A model generated the notes under the pieces. That model had not been told where the DNA came from and searched no databases. It saw only the letters and a list, made by a program, of their open reading frames with translations. A stretch of 11,474 nt of DNA, taken from an uncultured Defluviitaleaceae bacterium. GTDB lineage: Bacteria; Bacillota; Clostridia; Lachnospirales; WRBF01. Positions 4,404-11,474 of the stretch are shown one piece after another; within the stretch, counting starts at the first letter, position 1; the number at the start of each line of letters is the position of its first letter. Location of the stretch: positions 1 through 11,474 of the forward strand of contig CAYMOU010000084.1 in the NCBI GenBank assembly GCA_964392115.1. The letters run 5' to 3'. A program made the translations under genes and the position numbers.

Positions 4404-4992
4404 CTATAATAACGTTATTTTGAGAGTTTTGTTCCTTCTCGTACAATTGTTTTAATCGGCGTCTTGCACGTGATAATCTTGATTTTACCGTTCCCAAGTT
4501 ACTGTTGGTTACCTCCGCTATTTCGTTATAACTCATTCCCTGTATATCCCTTAATACTATTAAAGTCTTGTAATCGTGAGAAAGCTTGTGTATAGCCGAA
4601 ACCAATTCCTTTTGTTTTTCCGATTCTATGGCGCTTTCTTCCGGGGTGCTTTCTTTTGAAGGGATTTGTATAATTTTAAGCCCCTCTTCGCCGTCCTTTG
4701 TTTCGTCCAGACTGACGGCTTCTTTCCGCCGGCGTTTACGCAGCTCGTCTATACAAGTATTTGTTGTTATTCTGGCTACCCAGCTTTTGAAATAAGTAAT
4801 GTTGGAAAATTCATGCAGATTTTTGTATATCTTAATCAATACCTCTTGGGATATATCCTTGGCATCTTCGCTGTTTGGCAACATTCTGTAAGCAATGGCA
4901 TACACGAACTTTTCGTACCCCAGGATTAATTGCTCAAATGCTCCCATATCTCCTTCGGTGGCTTTTATCAGTAAGTAAGCTTCATTATCCAA
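4390..4992 (-). CDS. ECF (sigma-70 family, group IV) RNA polymerase sigma factor.
   Basis: 200 aa with region 2 (GDMGAFEQLILGYEKFVYAIAYRML...DISQEVLIKIYKNLHEF...SWVARITTNTCIDELRK) and region 4 (LRDIQGMSYNEIAEVTNSNLGTVKSRLSRARRRL). The start codon is TTG (minus-strand RC of 4990-4992) with RBS AAGGAG 8 nt upstream. Confidence 0.85.
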   Translation of the reverse strand: MDNEAYLLIKATEGDMGAFEQLILGYEKFVYAIAYRMLPNSEDAKDISQEVLIKIYKNLHEFSNITYFKSWVARITTNTCIDELRKRRRKEAVSLDETKDGEEGLKIIQIPSKESTPEESAIESEKQKELVSAIHKLSHDYKTLIVLRDIQGMSYNEIAEVTNSNLGTVKSRLSRARRRLKQLYEKEQNSQNNVIIDGRR

Positions 4993-5144: not shown

Positions 5145-5252
5145 TAATATGAAACATTGCTTCAATTTAACGGGTCTGCAAGCCTAAAACAACAAATCAC
5201 ACATATGTACTTTGATAGCATAAGATAAACACCTATAAGTATGGAGGAAAAA

Positions 5253-6176
5253 ATGAACGAGCAAAAAAAATTAACCCCTGAACAAATTAAAAACGTTAAA
5301 GGTATGGGATTTTTACATAACAGAGGAACCGGCTCTTTTTCGGGCAGGGTAATTACGGAAAACGGCGTTTTAACGGCTAAGGATATGGCGGTTTTGTCTC
5401 AAGCGGCGGAAAAATTCGGTAATGGCAAGGTTACCTTTACCGTCAGAATGACCTGTGAATTACCGGGCATAGAGTACGATAACATAGAACCCTTCCGTGA
5501 ATTTTTGGCGAAAGAAGGCCTGCAAGTCGGCGGAACAGGCCCTAAAGTGCGCCCCATCGTAGCCTGCAAGGGAACCACCTGTGTTTACGGGCTTTACGAT
5601 ACTCAAGCTATGGCAAAGGAAATACACAAGCGTTTCTTTGAGGGATATTCCAAAGTTATGTTGCCTCATAAATTTAAAATTACTTCCGGCGGCTGCCCGA
5701 ATAATTGTGCAAAACCGGACTTAAACGACGTGGGCTTGGTTGGTCAACGCATACCCAAGTTTAAAGCCGAAGATTGTAAAGGCTGCAAGAAATGCGTGGT
5801 CAGTGAGGGTTGCCCTATGAAAGCGGCTACCCTTGATGACGGAAAATTATCCATAGACGAAAACATCTGCAACAGTTGCGGTAAATGCACCAGAACCTGT
5901 ACTTTCAAAATTTTTGAAGATAACGAAACTTTATATAAAGTCTACGCCGGCGGTAAATGGGGTAAACAAATCCGAGTTGGTACTCCCATAAGCAAATTGT
6001 TCACCAAAGAAGAAGCCCTTGATGTAGTTGAAAAATGCATCCTCCTCTTTAAAAAAGAAGGCATTAAAGGCGAACGCTTCGGCGATACCATAGACCGCAT
6101 AGGTAAAGAAAAAGCCGATGAATTACTTATTTCAGACATTTTGTTAAACGAAAAAGAAGAAATAATTAATTCCTGA
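5253..6176 (+). CDS. Stand-alone AsrC-like protein (anaerobic sulfite reductase subunit C-like): a nitrite/sulfite reductase ferredoxin-like half-domain plus siroheme/4Fe-4S domain, with an inserted 2x[4Fe-4S] ferredoxin motif.
   Basis: Cys motifs CKGTTC...CPNNC are the SiR/NiR-type cluster, and CKGCKKCVVSEGCP...CNSCGKCTRTC is the ferredoxin dicluster. Architecture matches AsrC. The ORF track starts at 5241 (ATGGAGG...), but that ATG overlaps the RBS GGAGG for the ATG at 5253, so 5253 is preferred. Confidence 0.7.
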   Translation: MNEQKKLTPEQIKNVKGMGFLHNRGTGSFSGRVITENGVLTAKDMAVLSQAAEKFGNGKVTFTVRMTCELPGIEYDNIEPFREFLAKEGLQVGGTGPKVRPIVACKGTTCVYGLYDTQAMAKEIHKRFFEGYSKVMLPHKFKITSGGCPNNCAKPDLNDVGLVGQRIPKFKAEDCKGCKKCVVSEGCPMKAATLDDGKLSIDENICNSCGKCTRTCTFKIFEDNETLYKVYAGGKWGKQIRVGTPISKLFTKEEALDVVEKCILLFKKEGIKGERFGDTIDRIGKEKADELLISDILLNEKEEIINS

Positions 6177-6249: not shown

Positions 6250-6303
6250 AAATGCACCAAATGCACCAAATGCACCAAATGCACCAAATGCACCAAATGC
6301 ATC
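6250..6303. repeat. 9-bp tandem repeat (AAATGCACC)x5 plus one degenerate copy (AAATGCATC).
   Basis: Perfect head-to-tail copies read directly. It translates as (MHQ)n or (FGA)n in spurious ORFs. Confidence 0.85.
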
Positions 6304-6429: not shown

Positions 6430-6540
6430 TACTAATTCCTTATTTAATGAAGGTTTAATGAAGGATAAAAATTTGCAAATTATCCTTAAATCTTTGTCAA
6501 AATTGCAAGTTTTTATCTACTGTTTTAAATGGAATTAGTA
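6430..6540 (+). repeat. Copy B of the TIR-bounded palindromic element (TACTAATTCCT...ATGGAATTAGTA). It contains an internal 10-bp duplication (TTAATGAAGG x2). A further partial fragment lies at ~6561-6590 (TACTAATTGCAAAT on the - strand).
   Basis: Aligns with copy C and with the reverse complement of copy A. It sits between the glxK pseudogene stop (6598) and the - strand terminator. Confidence 0.65.
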
Positions 6541-6597: not shown

Positions 6598-7724
6598 CTA
6601 TTTTACGCAATTTATGCTTTTCATCAAGCGCAAAATATTGTCAACGGTAAACTCTAAATTTTTAGCACTGTGAACCTTACTTTGGGCAAATTCCATGGGA
6701 AGCTTGTTTATGGTGAATATGGAGCCCACACCCATTTCATAAGCTTGTTCTATGTTATCATCCTCACCGCCCACAATTACCGTTAAGGGTACGTTTTGTT
6801 TCCTGGCCCGTTTTGCAACGCCTATAACAACCTTGCCACTAAGGCTTTGCGTATCTATCTTTCCTTCGCCTGTAAAAATCATATCCGCATGGGCAATTCC
6901 CTTATCAAAATTAACCGTATCCAATACTGTCTCTATGCCATTTGCAAACGTGAACCAAAAAAATACCAACATTCCGGCACCCATTGCCTCGGCAGCCCCG
7001 GAACCGGGAACGAAGCTTATATCGCTGCACAAGTCTCTTGTAATAATTTTGCTCACATGCATCAAGCCTTGGTCGAGGCTCTCTACCATTTCCGGGTTAG
7101 CGCCTTTTTGTGGGCCGAATATGTAAGCTGCACCTGTTTTGCCGTACATGTGGTTGTCTATGTTGCACATGGTAATTATTTCTACCGTTTAAGTCATTAG
7201 ATTTTTGGGAAATGTCTATTCTGTCTATTTCTGCAAGGGTTACGCCTGTGGGTACAAGAGCCTTGTGAAACTTTACGCCTACAGCGGCTGCGGCACCTGT
7301 ACCGTCATCATTGGTAGAACTTCCGCCAAGTCCCACGATTATTTTTTAATGCCCTCTTCGGCGGCGGCAAGAATTAGCCGGCCCACGCCAAAGGTTGTGG
7401 TTTTACCGGGGTCTTTTCTGTCCTCTGCAAGGGTAACCCGGCACAGCTTGCCAATTCAATAACGGCGGTGGATCCGTCGTTTAAAATGCCATAAAATGCT
7501 TCCACATCCTCGAAATATGGATTTTCAACGGTTAGGTATTACTTTTTGCCGCCTACGGCAGACAGAAAGCAATCAACGCTGCCTTCACTGCCGTAGGCAA
7601 CGGGTATGGAGACAACATTGCAATCGCTGTAATGCTATTTGATTTTCCGGCTGATAATATTGTAAATTTGCGCAGAACTTAAAGTTCCTTTAAACGAATC
7701 GGGTATTAATACCGCTTTTTTCAT
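6598..7724 (-). pseudogene. glxK: Glycerate kinase (GlxK/GarK family) pseudogene. It has at least two in-frame nonsense codons (TAG after ...IISRKIK, TAA after ...SAVGGKK) and at least three frameshifts. Two of the frameshifts are in homopolymer runs: A6 where A7 is needed at the IKKIIVGLGG junction, and the A/C run near KTP/GKTTTFGVG.
   Basis: Pieces translate to MKKAVLIPDSFKGTLSS..., HYSDCNVVSIPVA.GSEGSVDCFLSAVGGKK, VEAFYGILNDGSTAVIEL, KTTTFGVGRLILAAAEEGIKK, IVGLGGSSTNDDGTGAAAAVGVKFH... and the intact C-terminal 190 aa (GAAEAMGAGM..., TGEGKIDTQSLSGKVVIGVAKRA). All are co-linear with glycerate kinases but in three different frames. The nonsense substitutions argue against pure sequencing error. 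Confidence 0.75.
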
Positions 7725-7783: not shown

Positions 7784-7817
7784 TTGAGGGAAACTCCTAT
7801 TGAAAAGTTTCCCTCAA
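7784..7817 (-). other. Conserved hairpin TTGAGGGAAAC-(12 nt)-GTTTCCCTCAA in the larA-glxK intergenic region, 17 nt after the larA stop. It is a possible weak terminator/attenuator or RNA-stability element.
   Basis: Perfect 11-bp inverted repeat. The identical stem with a different loop recurs at 11362-11399. Confidence 0.4.
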
Positions 7818-7833
7818 ATTTATGCGTTAATAT

Positions 7834-9108
7834 TTAGATTACGATTACAGACACACCGTCCGGTATAGCCAGAATTTTGGCGTCCTTTTGGCCCAGAATT
7901 TCGTCTGCCTTTTGTACGGCTTCTTCTATAGAATGGGCCGGTATCATATGAAGCTCTTCAACCAATTGGTCGGGAGCATCGGAAACGTAAACTACTTTCG
8001 AATTCATAAGTATACGGGCGAAAATTTGGGATTGCCATTGGTCAACTATGGTTTCGGTGGCTTTTGTGGAAAGGAAACTTTCCATTAATTTAAGAGCGTC
8101 TTTTTCTTCCCTAAAGGTCTTGTGGAAGGCGCTGCCGCCGTGACCGTCGTTGGATTTGGCAAGCATAATGATTACGCCGCCTTTGTTAAGGGTGGCTTCA
8201 GCGGCGGTCATGCCTTTTACAGCTTGATAAATATTTTGGTCAAGAGGATAACCGCCGTTGGTGGTGATAACTATATCCGAGGGTAAACTTTTTACCTTAC
8301 ATTTGCTGCAAAGGAATTCACGGCCTTGAATGTGGGCAAGGTCGCAGTCTCCGGCTACGGCATAAATGGCTTCCTTGTCGGAATTGATAACAACGTTGCA
8401 AATAAAGTCAAGACGGGCAATTCTTGCACCGTAAAGCATATCAACGTGAATGGGGTTTTTATCTATAATACCGGTTCTGGCGTATTCGCTGGAAATAAAG
8501 TCGGCGTTGTGGTTGTATAAAACGGTTTTGCGGCTTGCAATACCGGGAAGTACGCTCTTTCTGCCTCCGGAGAATCCCGCAAAGAAGTGGGGTTCTATAA
8601 AGCCTTCTGCAACCAGAAGGTCGGCTTCAATTGCCATTTTATTAATAATCAAATCGCCGCCTGAAGGAAGCTTACCAAGGTTTACCAGCATGGACTCGTC
8701 GTCGCAGTCATGAATATAAATTTTCTCATTTTTAACGATGTCTTCGCCGAATTTGCCTATTAATTCTTCCTTGGTGGTTTCTCTGTGACAGCCTGTGGAA
8801 ATAAGGAAGGTAATATCCGCATCGGGGTTGCCTTTTCTTATTTCTTCAAGAATTAAGGGCGCTATAACTTTGGAAGGCACCGGGCGAGTATGGTCGCTGG
8901 CGATAATAACTACTTTGTTTTTACCCTTAGCCATTTCGCAAAGGCGTGGCGTGCCGATGGGGTTTTCAAGGGCTTTGCGTACCAATTCGGTTTGAGAAAG
9001 TTCCGGCTTGTAGTGATGCATTTCGGAGACAAGCTCTCCGGCGAATCTGTTTTCTGGTATATCGTAAGTTAAATAATCTGTTCCGTAAGGAAATTTAACG
9101 GTAGGCAT
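7834..9108 (-). CDS. LarA-family nickel-pincer nucleotide (NPN)-dependent 2-hydroxyacid racemase/epimerase (DUF2088 fold). The substrate is unknown, so it is not annotated as a lactate racemase.
   Basis: 424 aa. It conserves the LarA catalytic/cofactor motifs as I recall them from L. plantarum LarA: STGCHR (catalytic His), EPHFFAGFSGGRK (NPN-tethering Lys) and a downstream YNHN His. RBS AAGGAGG is 7 nt upstream of the ATG. Confidence 0.85.
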   Translation of the reverse strand: MPTVKFPYGTDYLTYDIPENRFAGELVSEMHHYKPELSQTELVRKALENPIGTPRLCEMAKGKNKVVIIASDHTRPVPSKVIAPLILEEIRKGNPDADITFLISTGCHRETTKEELIGKFGEDIVKNEKIYIHDCDDESMLVNLGKLPSGGDLIINKMAIEADLLVAEGFIEPHFFAGFSGGRKSVLPGIASRKTVLYNHNADFISSEYARTGIIDKNPIHVDMLYGARIARLDFICNVVINSDKEAIYAVAGDCDLAHIQGREFLCSKCKVKSLPSDIVITTNGGYPLDQNIYQAVKGMTAAEATLNKGGVIIMLAKSNDGHGGSAFHKTFREEKDALKLMESFLSTKATETIVDQWQSQIFARILMNSKVVYVSDAPDQLVEELHMIPAHSIEEAVQKADEILGQKDAKILAIPDGVSVIVI

Positions 9109-9144
9109 GGTTTTTCCTCCTTTATTTGAAAAGCACTTTGAAGA

Positions 9145-10110
9145 TTATAATTTTTCGCCGATTTCTATTGCTTTTAGTAGACTTTCTTCGTTAGCCGTAA
9201 GTTTCCCGGCTATGTCAAATGCGGTGCCGTGGTCGACAGAGGTTCTTACAACATCCAGTCCTACGGTAATGTTTACGCCGCTGTCAAAGGCAAGCAGTTT
9301 TAAGGGAATATGACCTTGGTCGTGATACATGGCAACCACTATGTGGTATTTTCCTTTTAAAGCCTGTAAAAATACCGTATCCGGCGGAATCGGCCCGTAT
9401 ACGTCCATACCGGCTTTTTTGCATTCGTTTACAGCCGGGATAATTTCGGTTATTTCTTCGTCTCCGAAGATGCCGTTTTCGCCGGCATGAGGGTTAAGCC
9501 CGGCTACAGCTATGCGTGGTTTATCATAACCGGCCTTGGTCAAGGTGTTATGAGCCAGCATGATTACTTGACATATTCTCTCCTTCTTAGCTGCATCACA
9601 GGCTTTTCGCAAGGAAACATGAGTGGAAACGTGAATTGTTTTCAGTTTGTCGCTCCAAAGTAGCATGGCGTATGAATCGCCTTTTAAATATTCTCCGAAA
9701 ATCTCCGTATGGCCGGCAAATTTGTAGCCTGACAAATGCAGGGCTTCTTTATTTAAGGGCGCCGTAACCACCGATGATATTTCTTTATCTAATGCAAAAT
9801 CTATGGCGGCTTTTACGCTTAAAAAGGCGCATTTCCCACCGGTTTCGGAGACTTTGCCTATCATGCCGGGGTCAAAGGTTATGGGGTTTGCATCAAAAAT
9901 ATTAACGCAATCCGTAAGGGTCTCGGAAGCGGCTTTTACCGGATTAAATTTTAAGCCGTAACCCAGTAATTTATTGTAATGCTCCAACACATCCAAACTC
10001 CCGAAAACTATACACCTTCCCAAATACTCGGGGTGTTTATGCAAGGCTTTTAAGGTGATTTCGGGGCCTATACCAAAGGGATCGCCCATAGTTAAGCCGA
10101 AAACTCTCAC
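9145..10110 (-). CDS. pdxA2: PdxA-family NAD-dependent 4-phospho-hydroxyacid dehydrogenase, most likely PdxA2-type 4-phospho-D-threonate/erythronate dehydrogenase (decarboxylating, DHAP-forming).
   Basis: 321 aa with PdxA motifs TMGDPFGIGPEI, HVSTHVSL, AGLNPHAGENG and MYHDQGHIP. GTG start with RBS GGAGG 7 nt upstream; the GTGA overlaps the upstream stop. Genomic pairing with a DUF1537 kinase is the hallmark of PdxA2 rather than the PLP-pathway PdxA. Confidence 0.85.
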   Translation of the reverse strand: MRVFGLTMGDPFGIGPEITLKALHKHPEYLGRCIVFGSLDVLEHYNKLLGYGLKFNPVKAASETLTDCVNIFDANPITFDPGMIGKVSETGGKCAFLSVKAAIDFALDKEISSVVTAPLNKEALHLSGYKFAGHTEIFGEYLKGDSYAMLLWSDKLKTIHVSTHVSLRKACDAAKKERICQVIMLAHNTLTKAGYDKPRIAVAGLNPHAGENGIFGDEEITEIIPAVNECKKAGMDVYGPIPPDTVFLQALKGKYHIVVAMYHDQGHIPLKLLAFDSGVNITVGLDVVRTSVDHGTAFDIAGKLTANEESLLKAIEIGEKL

Positions 10111-10760
10111 AAAACCACCTCCTTAATCTTACGCATACTGAAACTGACGGCATCCTCCTTGCCAAAGGCACCGGCCTTTGTGATAACCTTTAATCCGTCA
10201 AAGTCTCCGCCTTTAAGGCTCATCATGGGTATACCCAAGGATACCTCGGTCAAAACAGAGGAACCCACGGAATTAAGCTCGTTGAAAAAGCCTATGGCGG
10301 TGTCTCCACCGGTGAGAAAAACGCCCGAAACCTTAACTTTGGTAAGAATTTCCTTTGAGGCTTCCGCCAACTTTTTCTGAATGAAATTCCCTATTTCCTC
10401 GTTGCTCACGCCGGATTTTTTGCCGGTTTCGTTGGTAAGTTCATGCTCTTCGGCATCGTAGGAAGATGAGGAGCATAAAATCAGGTCTTTGCCTGCTTTT
10501 AATGTCTCCTTAGCTGCGGAAACATAGTCTTTTATATCCTTGCCGGTTAATATTTCATGAAAAGGCACCTTTATTACGGATATGCTGCTTTGTTCCGCAA
10601 ATTTTACTTGGCTTCTTGTAACCGAACTTACACTGCCCACCAAACCCAAGGCCGGCGGAGCTTTTCTTTCCTCGTCAAACAAAATATCTGCCATTGCCGC
10701 CGAGCCAATCCAAAGAATGCGTTTTTGGGTAGCTAAGGCGGAGACGATGATATTTTTCAT
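10107..10760 (-). CDS. C-terminal (nucleotide-binding) domain fragment of a four-carbon acid sugar kinase (DUF1537; OtnK/DtnK family). This is the downstream half of a gene split by a frameshift; its reading frame is actually open up to 10832.
   Basis: Upstream of the annotated ATG the same frame reads ...GQRNKINLSQGRIYTFDALTNADMKNIIVSALATQK, a continuous kinase-like sequence (compare the E. coli YgbK GIIVVDAVEERDLTLIAQAA region as recalled). C-terminal motifs GVFLTGGDTA and KAGAFG are present. Confidence 0.7.
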   Translation of the reverse strand: MKNIIVSALATQKRILWIGSAAMADILFDEERKAPPALGLVGSVSSVTRSQVKFAEQSSISVIKVPFHEILTGKDIKDYVSAAKETLKAGKDLILCSSSSYDAEEHELTNETGKKSGVSNEEIGNFIQKKLAEASKEILTKVKVSGVFLTGGDTAIGFFNELNSVGSSVLTEVSLGIPMMSLKGGDFDGLKVITKAGAFGKEDAVSFSMRKIKEVVL

Positions 10761-11326
10761 GTCTGCGTTGGTAAGAGCATCGAAGGTATATATTCTACCT
10801 TGAGACAGATTGATTTTGTTTCTCTGACCGAGTTAAGGTTGATGTGGGTAACAGACTCCGTAAAAACTTTGCTTAAAATAGCCTGTAAATTATCTTCCAT
10901 AACCGGGTTTTTCGGGTCTCTTGCAAGCTCGGTTTGGGTTATGGGCGTTCCGTTAAGCAGGTGAATTCCTTCAAGGGTAGTGCGGTTAAGATCGGGCAGA
11001 GCCGGGGCAAAGATTATAAGCTCGCTTTTGCAACAGTTATCCACAGCCTTGACTTCGTGGGCTATGTTGCCACGCAAGGTAGAGTCAACCTTTTTCATGA
11101 TATATTTAAAAACGGATAAATCTATATCTTTTACAAGACCGGACACTTTATTGAAGGCTTCCTCCGGAGACAGGCTTCTGCTTTCCGTATCCAGCACATA
11201 AGAATTTTCGTTATTGATAAGTTCAGTTGAAAACACCACATCGGTGGGCACTCCTCGGCGTTTTAATTGAACGCCGGTGTCGTTGGCACCGGTAAAATCA
11301 TCTGCAACTATTAAATATCTGTTCAT
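10757..11326 (-). CDS. N-terminal domain fragment of the same four-carbon acid sugar kinase (DUF1537, OtnK/DtnK family). It is truncated by a +/-1 frameshift in a T4/A4 run near 10811-10822.
   Basis: MNRYLIVADDFTGANDTGVQL is the family's N-terminal signature (IADDFTG.ND). The start ATG at 11326 has RBS GGAGG 7 nt upstream; the ORF-track ATG at 11344 contains that RBS. This frame then decays into the non-homologous SICLKVEYIPSMLLPTQT* tail. Confidence 0.7.
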   Translation of the reverse strand: MNRYLIVADDFTGANDTGVQLKRRGVPTDVVFSTELINNENSYVLDTESRSLSPEEAFNKVSGLVKDIDLSVFKYIMKKVDSTLRGNIAHEVKAVDNCCKSELIIFAPALPDLNRTTLEGIHLLNGTPITQTELARDPKNPVMEDNLQAILSKVFTESVTHINLNSVRETKSICLKVEYIPSMLLPTQT

Positions 11327-11361
11327 TAGCCGGCCTCCAAACATTTAGAAAATAATAAACC

Positions 11362-11399
11362 TTGAGGGAAACATCTTCCGGAGAAAAAGTTTCCCTCAA
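11362..11399 (-). other. Second copy of the TTGAGGGAAAC/GTTTCCCTCAA hairpin (16-nt loop), located in the 5' leader of the kinase-pdxA2-larA operon. On the mRNA strand it is followed by GGUUUAUUAUUUUCU and then the RBS, so it is a terminator/attenuator-like leader structure.
   Basis: Perfect 11-bp stem identical to 7784-7817 with a divergent loop; a U-rich tract follows on the - strand, 20 nt before the GGAGG RBS. Confidence 0.4.
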
Positions 11400-11419
11400 A
11401 CACCCTGAATGTTAAATTG

Positions 11420-11474
11420 TACTAATTCCATATTTAATGAAGGATAAAAATTTGCAAATTATCCTTGAATCTTT
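11420..11474 (+). repeat. Copy C (truncated by the window end) of the TIR-bounded palindromic element, upstream of the - strand operon.
   Basis: TACTAATTCCATATTTAATGAAGGATAAAAATTTGCAAATTATCCTTGAATCTTT is near-identical to 6430-6500 and to the reverse complement of 1345-1395. Confidence 0.65.

Follow-up and report, generated by a model that had tools for sequence, protein, structure and literature searches.

Gene content and lesions of the LarA locus

The stretch analysed here, referred to below as the window, is one whole contig of 11,474 bp (CAYMOU010000084.1) from an uncultured Defluviitaleaceae bacterium, and counts on window genes refer to that contig. It probably belongs to a metagenome-assembled genome; its exact LarA protein is recorded from this contig alone, with more than 7900 close homologues. 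Four co-directional genes were found on its minus strand between 11344 and 6598, namely those for a DUF1537 kinase, a PdxA-family enzyme, the nickel-pincer nucleotide (NPN) dependent racemase LarA and a glycerate kinase; the PdxA and LarA genes are intact, and both kinase genes are broken. Families were assigned using Pfam domains and NCBIfam/TIGR models with their cut-offs, and lesions were mapped by tblastn with intact orthologues. What was observed directly comprises the domains encoded, the catalytic residues, cluster conservation in relatives and the pseudogene state in this contig. The features of the region are:

7834–9108, minus strand: LarA gene, LAR-group NPN-dependent 2-hydroxyacid racemase of the Gln359 subtype, intact, 424 amino acids (domains, residues)
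9145–10110, minus strand: PdxA-family (PdxA2-type) nicotinamide adenine dinucleotide (NAD)-dependent oxidative decarboxylase gene, intact, 321 amino acids (Pfam, TIGR00557)
10107–11344, minus strand: DUF1537 four-carbon acid-sugar kinase gene with one frameshift (SBD_N and NBD_C domains on separate open reading frames, ORFs)
10814–10830, minus strand: site of the kinase frameshift, most simply a 1-nt deletion in a run of A
6598–7724, minus strand: class I glycerate kinase (PF02595) pseudogene (tblastn: four frame segments, two in-frame stops, a deletion)

The LarA protein is complete in both of its domains: PF09861 (Lar_N) spans residues 8–213 (profile positions 1–204 of 204) and the C-terminal domain PF21113 (LarA_C) spans residues 272–423 (profile positions 1–152 of 152). 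It scores 620.6 bits on the NCBIfam model Ni_dep_LarA (NF033504), above the equivalog cut-off of 460, and lies below every cut-off of the malate racemase, LarAH10 and hexonate models, with 21 bits against 500 for the hexonate epimerase model NF052594. The catalytic His108 (in the motif STGCHR) and His174 are kept, as are the cofactor-binding Arg75, Lys184 (in GFSGGRK) and His200. A preliminary description of this DNA had named a minus-strand LarA homologue with these two motifs, and domains, model score and residues all agree with that assignment. It had also placed larB, larC and larE outside the window, and indeed no match to LarB, LarC or LarE was found anywhere within it.

For the active-site comparison, the 20 positions given by Desguin et al. 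2020 were used. The specificity positions 175/176/358/359 of the window LarA are F, F, W and Q, which is the LAR signature (F, F, W, E/Q; PMC11770544, Urdiain-Arraiza et al. 2024), and the GntE-type residues E, V, A and H were not found there. At 19 of the 20 positions, Gln359 included, it is identical to LarAH43 of Enterocloster asparagiformis; the sole mismatch is position 355 (Pro in LarAH43, Val in the window LarA), which varies in every context group of the relatives. One of these relatives, L062, carries the LarAH43 gene itself, since both published cloning primers match it exactly. LAR-group enzymes are promiscuous in vitro on very small 2-hydroxy acids, and LarAH43 has a kcat/KM of 1.14e5 M-1 s-1 for glycerate, 8.3e4 M-1 s-1 for lactate, 1.7e2 M-1 s-1 for 4-deoxy-D-threonate/erythronate and 0.8e2 M-1 s-1 for 4-deoxy-L-threonate/erythronate (PMC11770544). 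The authors ascribed the glycerate preference to Gln359 and left the physiological meaning of glycerate racemisation open; threonate and erythronate were outside their substrate panel. The list of known LarA activities in the preliminary description was therefore out of date, as LAR-group racemisation of glycerate and epimerisation of 4-deoxy-threonate/erythronate were published in 2024. Judged from its residues, the window LarA is probably a lactate/glycerate racemase, provided that the cofactor is made elsewhere in the genome.

The PdxA protein matches PF04166 with 343.9 bits (positions 4–285 of 286) and TIGR00557 with 344 bits (cut-off 290), and reaches 340.5 bits on the D-threonate-4-phosphate dehydrogenase model NF002891, below its cut-off of 583. 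A DUF1537 kinase gene lies adjacent and co-oriented, a pairing that is kept in the relatives. At conserved columns no relaxed selection on LarA or PdxA was seen: LarA has only one deviation at columns at least 95% conserved, and PdxA has five at columns at least 90% conserved, a number that falls inside the range of its homologues. Both genes in the contig still look constrained.

The preliminary description had joined the kinase, PdxA and LarA genes in a three-gene operon. Its account of the junctions holds: the GTG start of PdxA overlaps the kinase stop as GTGA (10110–10107), and the LarA start lies 36 nt past the PdxA stop. PdxA and LarA are intact as it supposed, but the kinase is not one ORF. 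Its first part (11344–10757) encodes a truncated SBD_N domain (profile positions 2–173 of 230) and its second part (10760–10107) encodes NBD_C in a different frame, so the union of SBD_N and NBD_C in a single polypeptide, as in DtnK, is not found in the window kinase. In the relatives the kinase is a single in-frame gene, and tblastn with these intact orthologues placed the frame switch at 10826–10814. The simplest cause is the loss of one A in GAGAAAACAAAATC, by which the conserved stretch GRIYTFDAxTxxD is put out of frame. Adding one A to the run in GTCAGAGAAACAAAATC gives a 406-amino-acid protein with the conserved GRIYTFDALTNAD stretch in frame again; its true start is likely the ATG at 11326, which is preceded by GGAGG at 11338–11334. 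The repaired kinase scores 290 bits on the D-threonate kinase equivalog (cut-off 450), and the intact orthologue of locus L002 scores 247 bits. Programmed −1 frameshifting was rejected by inspection, as GAA-ACA-AAA is no slippery heptamer, and transcriptional slippage was rejected as the A run is too short. That there is a single lesion suggests that the kinase was disrupted recently.

The "adjacent glycerate kinase" of the preliminary description proved to be a pseudogene with multiple lesions. Two in-frame stops (TAG at 7637–7635 and TAA at 7541–7539), at least three frameshifts, a 4-residue deletion and a change of ADGGEGS to AYGSEGS were mapped, and only the C-terminal 190 amino acids form an ORF (profile positions 189–372); no intact class I glycerate kinase frame of about 380 amino acids was found in the window.

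The lesions in both kinases look real. Run SRR10912418 has two Logan contigs that agree with the window at 100% identity, L081 over 11416–8327 and L082 over 8350–6518; the former repeats the kinase frameshift and the latter the glycerate kinase lesions. The PdxA and glycerate kinase fragment were matched exactly in Logan contigs of 3.1 kb and 1.8 kb, which lie inside the window span, and exact-protein look-ups for LarA, the flotillin and the sulfite-reductase-like protein of the window found no extending sequence. Sequencing or assembly error was rejected as the origin of the lesions: seven other genes of at least 200 amino acids are intact, substitutions account for the glycerate kinase stops, and the second assembly is identical, though both assemblies may share reads. 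An alternative genetic code was also rejected, the in-frame stops being TAG and TAA, with no in-frame TGA in any intact gene.

Gene neighbourhood of LarA in 80 related loci

The relatives comprise 80 genome loci (L001–L080) whose LarAs are 62–78% identical to that of the window, the closest at 78%, and ORFs up to 7 kb away from the LarA gene were clustered across all of them. At least one of three kinds of partner lies near LarA in 39 of the 80 loci: a KdgT-family permease in 31, a glycerate kinase in 27 (class I in 21; class II, with DUF4147 and MOFRL domains, in 6), and a DUF1537 kinase and/or PdxA in 24 (PdxA in 23, the kinase in 22); PrpR-type sigma-54 activators are present in 13 + 8 loci. 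The full form, activator-KdgT-kinase-PdxA-LarA-GlxK, occurs in L002, L007, L010, L035 and L038. Altogether about ten gene orders were seen among the cluster loci, including the following (K, DUF1537 kinase):

K-LarA-GlxK-KdgT-PdxA: L033, L039, L080
PdxA-K-LarA-GlxK-KdgT: L036
K and PdxA divergent from KdgT-LarA-GlxK: L027, L034
LarA-K-PdxA: L023

The hosts include Oscillospiraceae, Lachnospiraceae, Clostridiaceae, Sedimentibacter, Defluviitaleaceae and spirochaetes. The association of LarA with PdxA and the DUF1537 kinase, for which the preliminary description had proposed a search among relatives, is thus conserved far above chance. Its retention through so much rearrangement argues for a functional link, and we regard the functional linkage of the LarA, PdxA and DUF1537 genes as supported.

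The stable core of the cluster is permease-LarA-glycerate kinase. This core stands without kinase or PdxA in L003, L004, L044, L022 and L017, and the combinations of LarA neighbours are distributed as follows:

permease, kinase/PdxA and glycerate kinase: 16 loci
permease and glycerate kinase only: 5 loci
glycerate kinase only: 5 loci
kinase/PdxA only: 2 loci

The permeases form one orthologous group (50–75% identity), in which members from loci lacking kinase and PdxA are interleaved with the others. The active sites of LarAs linked to kinase/PdxA do not differ from those of LarAs linked only to permease and glycerate kinase. The glycerate kinases that alternate in the slot after LarA belong to two unrelated classes, class I (PF02595) and class II (DUF4147 and MOFRL). 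A class II enzyme takes the class I place after LarA in L008, L016, L022, L024 and L072, and lies upstream in L017, a case of non-orthologous displacement. It would be difficult to account for such a replacement if the metabolite concerned were not glycerate.

In Proteiniclasticum, kinase-DeoR-PdxA forms a separate unit beside activator-KdgT-LarA-GlxK. In Proteiniclasticum aestuarii (L011:12770–15597), larE-larB-larC follows directly after LarA-GlxK; this is the sole locus of the 80 in which the full cofactor pathway is co-located, and rpoN and the DeoR regulator lie within its kinase/PdxA part. A LarC-like gene was also observed upstream in L003 and L004.

Residue 359 of LarA divides the loci by context. 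Thirty-eight of the 62 Gln359 loci carry KdgT, glycerate kinase, DUF1537 or PdxA genes and none (0/62) a lactate permease, Etf (electron transfer flavoprotein) or flavin adenine dinucleotide (FAD)-oxidase gene, whereas sugar-acid neighbours are absent from the Glu359 loci (0/12), seven of the 12 lying beside EtfB-EtfA, an FAD oxidase and a lactate permease. Glu359 clades are nested among Gln359 clades in the LarA tree. In a further context of Gln359 LarA, a thiamine-diphosphate enzyme (556 amino acids) and/or an iron-containing alcohol dehydrogenase is encoded directly upstream, as in L018, L042, L045 and L074 (spirochaetes) and in L013, L021 and L051. In Sedimentibacter saalensis (L038:5517–6683), a UxaA/GarD-type dehydratase gene (GD_AH second and C-terminal domains) lies directly upstream of KdgT, which hints at a wider sugar-acid regulon in this species.

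A collection of plasmids yielded only ordinary larA loci of at most 54% identity, and a full-text literature search found no description of a cluster of LarA, PdxA, DUF1537 and glycerate kinase. The cluster and the partition of context by Gln or Glu at position 359 appear to be undescribed so far.

Repeats, hairpins and other genes of the window

Neither a permease nor an activator gene is present in the window contig. The repeats and hairpins of the contig are:

6427–6543, plus strand: copy A, complete, of an interspersed repeat resembling a miniature inverted-repeat transposable element (MITE), immediately downstream of the operon; its terminal inverted repeats are TACTAATTCC...GGAATTAGTA
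11417–11474, plus strand: copy B of the MITE-like repeat, immediately upstream of the operon and truncated where the contig ends
1295–1398, minus strand: third copy of the MITE-like repeat
11362–11399, minus strand: hairpin with U-rich tail, 35 nt upstream of the kinase start (-23.1 kcal/mol, z -4.4)
7784–7817, minus strand: terminator-like hairpin with U-rich tail, between LarA and the glycerate kinase pseudogene (-20.6 kcal/mol, z -5.4)

The MITE-like repeat is about 105 nt long, and its three copies in 11.5 kb are 89–98% alike. It has inverted repeats TACTAATTCCAT...ATGGAATTAGTA at its termini and contains a palindrome, AAGGATAA...TTATCCTT. Copy A folds with -29.3 kcal/mol (z -5.4); copy B is 98% identical over 42 nt to 6454–6495 and 93% complementary to 1343–1385. 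Copies A and B are direct repeats on either side of the decayed operon, and such repeats may have had a part in the loss of the permease and activator genes or in the break of the assembly. The two hairpins bracket kinase-PdxA-LarA and share the stem TTGAGGGAAAC...GTTTCCCTCAA, which is matched four times in the window against 0.23 expected. In a promoter and terminator scan of the window, counts were not above those of shuffled sequence and only these two shared hairpins stood out; a search of the window for riboswitches and known RNAs gave no Rfam family at gathering thresholds.

Several other features were observed in the window. A stand-alone 311-amino-acid protein with sirohaem-type NIR_SIR and ferredoxin domains is encoded at 5241–6176 (plus strand). 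Its top match is sulfite reductase subunit C (117 bits, cut-off 324), no partner subunits are encoded in the contig, and the gene is not kept beside the cluster in relatives. A perfect 9-nt tandem repeat, AAATGCACC, occupies 6250–6301 in 5.8 copies, in the intergenic space between this gene and the MITE-like repeat. An extracytoplasmic function (ECF) sigma factor (200 amino acids) and an anti-sigma factor (zf-HC2 and DUF4349, 463 amino acids) are encoded at 4992–3012 (minus strand) with a 14-nt overlap; they are adjoined by a flotillin-like SPFH gene (1446–2954) and a LysR regulator gene (341–1231), and are unrelated to the LarA cluster.

Interpretation and comparison with known systems

With moderate confidence we favour the reading that this region holds, in a state of decay, a cluster for the use of small sugar acids that is conserved in anaerobic Bacillota and spirochaetes, and that this cluster has a glycerate-racemase branch and a parallel branch leading from tetronates to dihydroxyacetone phosphate (DHAP). 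The intact cluster would consist of a sigma-54 PrpR-type activator, a KdgT-family permease, the DUF1537 kinase, the PdxA2-type dehydrogenase, LarA and a glycerate kinase, the two branches having one permease and one activator in common. In the first branch, LarA would convert L-glycerate to D-glycerate by proton-coupled hydride transfer on NPN via His108 and His174, and may act on lactate too; the glycerate kinase would capture D-glycerate as phosphoglycerate, which would enter glycolysis. In the second, accessory branch, modelled on the DtnK/PdxA2 route, the DUF1537 kinase would phosphorylate D-threonate or D-erythronate at position 4, and oxidative decarboxylation of the 4-phosphorylated product by PdxA2 would give DHAP. 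In the window contig this pathway is probably not functional, as the kinase is frameshifted, the glycerate kinase is a pseudogene and there is no permease or activator. The conservation of LarA beside a decayed glycerate kinase suggests that LarA is kept for a role independent of its neighbour, which most simply would be the racemisation of lactate/glycerate, served by another kinase or dehydrogenase from elsewhere in the genome.

Several points weigh against this reading. LarA is conserved in the contig although the glycerate kinase, its proposed partner, is in decay. The reading also supposes a supply of L-glycerate in these habitats. A model of two branches leaves the frequent interweaving of kinase and PdxA in the same operon unexplained; in L033, L039 and L080, LarA-GlxK-KdgT even lies between the kinase and PdxA. 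The association of residue 359 with context (Fisher p 6e-5 and 4e-7) is uncorrected for phylogeny, and since LarAH43 has no sugar-acid neighbours within 10 kb, Gln359 alone is no proof of a glycerate role. Finally, neither kinase nor PdxA reaches its D-threonate equivalog cut-off, and the substrate given to them is therefore putative.

A rival proposal, which we hold to be unlikely, is that LarA is a tetronate 2-epimerase, interconverting D-erythronate and D-threonate for one kinase/PdxA2 pair, perhaps besides glycerate racemisation. In its favour, kinase/PdxA genes adjoin this LarA type in 24 of 80 loci in many orders, including those in which kinase and PdxA flank LarA, and at least two divergent kinase/PdxA lineages (33–39% and 44–65% kinase identity to the window kinase) lie beside the LarA core. 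Besides, LAR-group enzymes do epimerise 4-deoxy-threonate/erythronate, the substrate panel of the LarAH43 study (PMC11770544) did not extend to threonate and erythronate themselves, and Gln359 could hydrogen-bond an extra hydroxyl. However, the active site is that of LarAH43 (19/20), for which the 4-deoxy-tetronates are about 700-fold poorer than glycerate; the F175/F176/W358 pocket is of the small lactate type, not the E/V/A/H type of gluconate 2-epimerases; and no residue sets the kinase/PdxA-linked LarAs apart. The scheme also leaves glycerate kinase, whether class I or class II, without a role, the core of LarA, permease and glycerate kinase is found in loci that lack kinase and PdxA, and the kinase which the scheme needs is frameshifted in the window contig. 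The dedicated tetronate 2-epimerase proposed in the preliminary description is therefore not borne out as the main function, the active site being LarAH43-like and the constant partners being KdgT and glycerate kinase. It is doubtful, too, that a Gln359 LarA acts physiologically as both D-erythronate/D-threonate 2-epimerase and glycerate racemase. If it did, a single enzyme would make the unsuitable stereoisomers of both C3 and C4 aldonic acids available to glycerate kinase and to one DUF1537/PdxA2 pair. Tetronate catabolism would thereby have its first NPN-dependent step, and the LAR group its first physiological pathway beyond lactate racemisation.

The preliminary description had counted clustering with lactate racemases against its epimerase, and this is where the protein falls: it passes the NCBIfam lactate racemase equivalog and is 53–54% identical to the solved lactate racemases and 63% to LarAH43. 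That score, the high lactate activity of LarAH43, and the conservation of the window LarA while both kinases decay, as expected of an independent gene, would also suit a plain lactate racemase whose neighbours are co-regulated or hitch-hiking and have no metabolic link to it. We judge this quite unlikely. Neighbours of the lactate permease, Etf or FAD-oxidase kind occur in 0/62 Gln359 loci against 7/12 Glu359 loci, and permease and glycerate kinase stay adjacent to LarA despite rearrangements and non-orthologous kinase replacement. Very unlikely is a series of all four enzymes acting on one unidentified KdgT-imported hydroxy acid, by chemistry beyond the DtnK/PdxA2 or glycerate routes: although a single permease and a single activator serve the whole six-gene operon, kinase and PdxA fall under the specific equivalog cut-offs and a UxaA-type dehydratase lies just upstream in Sedimentibacter, no linear scheme could be constructed in which the PdxA-type beta-oxidative decarboxylation of a phosphorylated acid gives glycerate, and the modules occur separately.

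The two-branch reading gives a testable answer to the physiological question on LAR-group glycerate racemisation: a permease-LarA-glycerate kinase core that is widespread, controlled by sigma-54 and often joined to a DUF1537/PdxA2 tetronate branch. If it is true, gut and sediment anaerobes employ nickel-pincer enzymes in using small sugar acids, a large LarA subgroup should no longer be annotated wholesale as "lactate racemase", and intact clusters are identified in which the tetronate epimerase idea can be cleanly tested. The window copy serves mainly as an example of cluster decay with LarA kept.

Among known systems, the closest enzyme is LarAH43 of E. asparagiformis DSM 15981 (PMC11770544), 63.4% identical to the window LarA, with the same domains, both catalytic His and the same NPN-binding residues. 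Its locus is different: genes for KdgT, glycerate kinase, DUF1537 and PdxA are all absent within 10 kb, and LarAH43 is accompanied by a PrpR-type regulator, a TAXI/TRAP transporter and an alpha/beta hydrolase. The lactate racemases of Lactiplantibacillus plantarum (5HUQ/6C1W) and Thermoanaerobacterium thermosaccharolyticum (2YJG) are 52.9% and 53.7% identical to the window LarA over the full length (E ~1e-140), and all three agree at Arg75, His108, His174, Lys184, His200, Tyr294, Gln295 and Lys298. Residue 359 is Thr in the former and Glu in the latter, against Gln in the window LarA, and both lie among larBCDE or genes for using lactate (Etf, FAD oxidase, lactate permease), not among sugar-acid genes. 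In Table S1 of Desguin et al. 2020, the group 1 neighbours are likewise LarB/C, Etf, FAD dehydrogenase and lactate permease, and PdxA, DUF1537 and glycerate kinase are unlisted.

The DtnK/PdxA2 route from D-threonate (and D-erythronate) to DHAP is reportedly the work of Zhang and colleagues (2016, in PNAS). The window resembles it in the two families, their order and their translational coupling, and the best NCBIfam matches of the window kinase and PdxA are D-threonate kinase and D-threonate-4-phosphate dehydrogenase. It differs in scores (290 against 450 and 340 against 583 bits), in the frameshifted kinase and in the LarA/glycerate kinase setting. This route of Zhang et al. 2016 is cited in passages of PMC9997740 and PMC10580937.

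GntE1, GntE2 and LarAH15, which are LarA-type D-gluconate 2-epimerases, show that a sugar acid can be epimerised at C2 by an NPN-dependent enzyme, the type of reaction put forward in the preliminary description, but the GntEs have E, V, A and H at 175/176/358/359 (PMC11770544), where the window LarA has F, F, W and Q. As to the class I glycerate kinases (GlxK/GarK, PF02595), the intact orthologue of L002 scores 413 bits on TIGR00045 while the window copy is a pseudogene; the class II (MOFRL) proteins of the relatives match glycerate 2-kinase models. All four enzyme families are thus already known, and the cluster extends a published in vitro activity and is not a new type of system.

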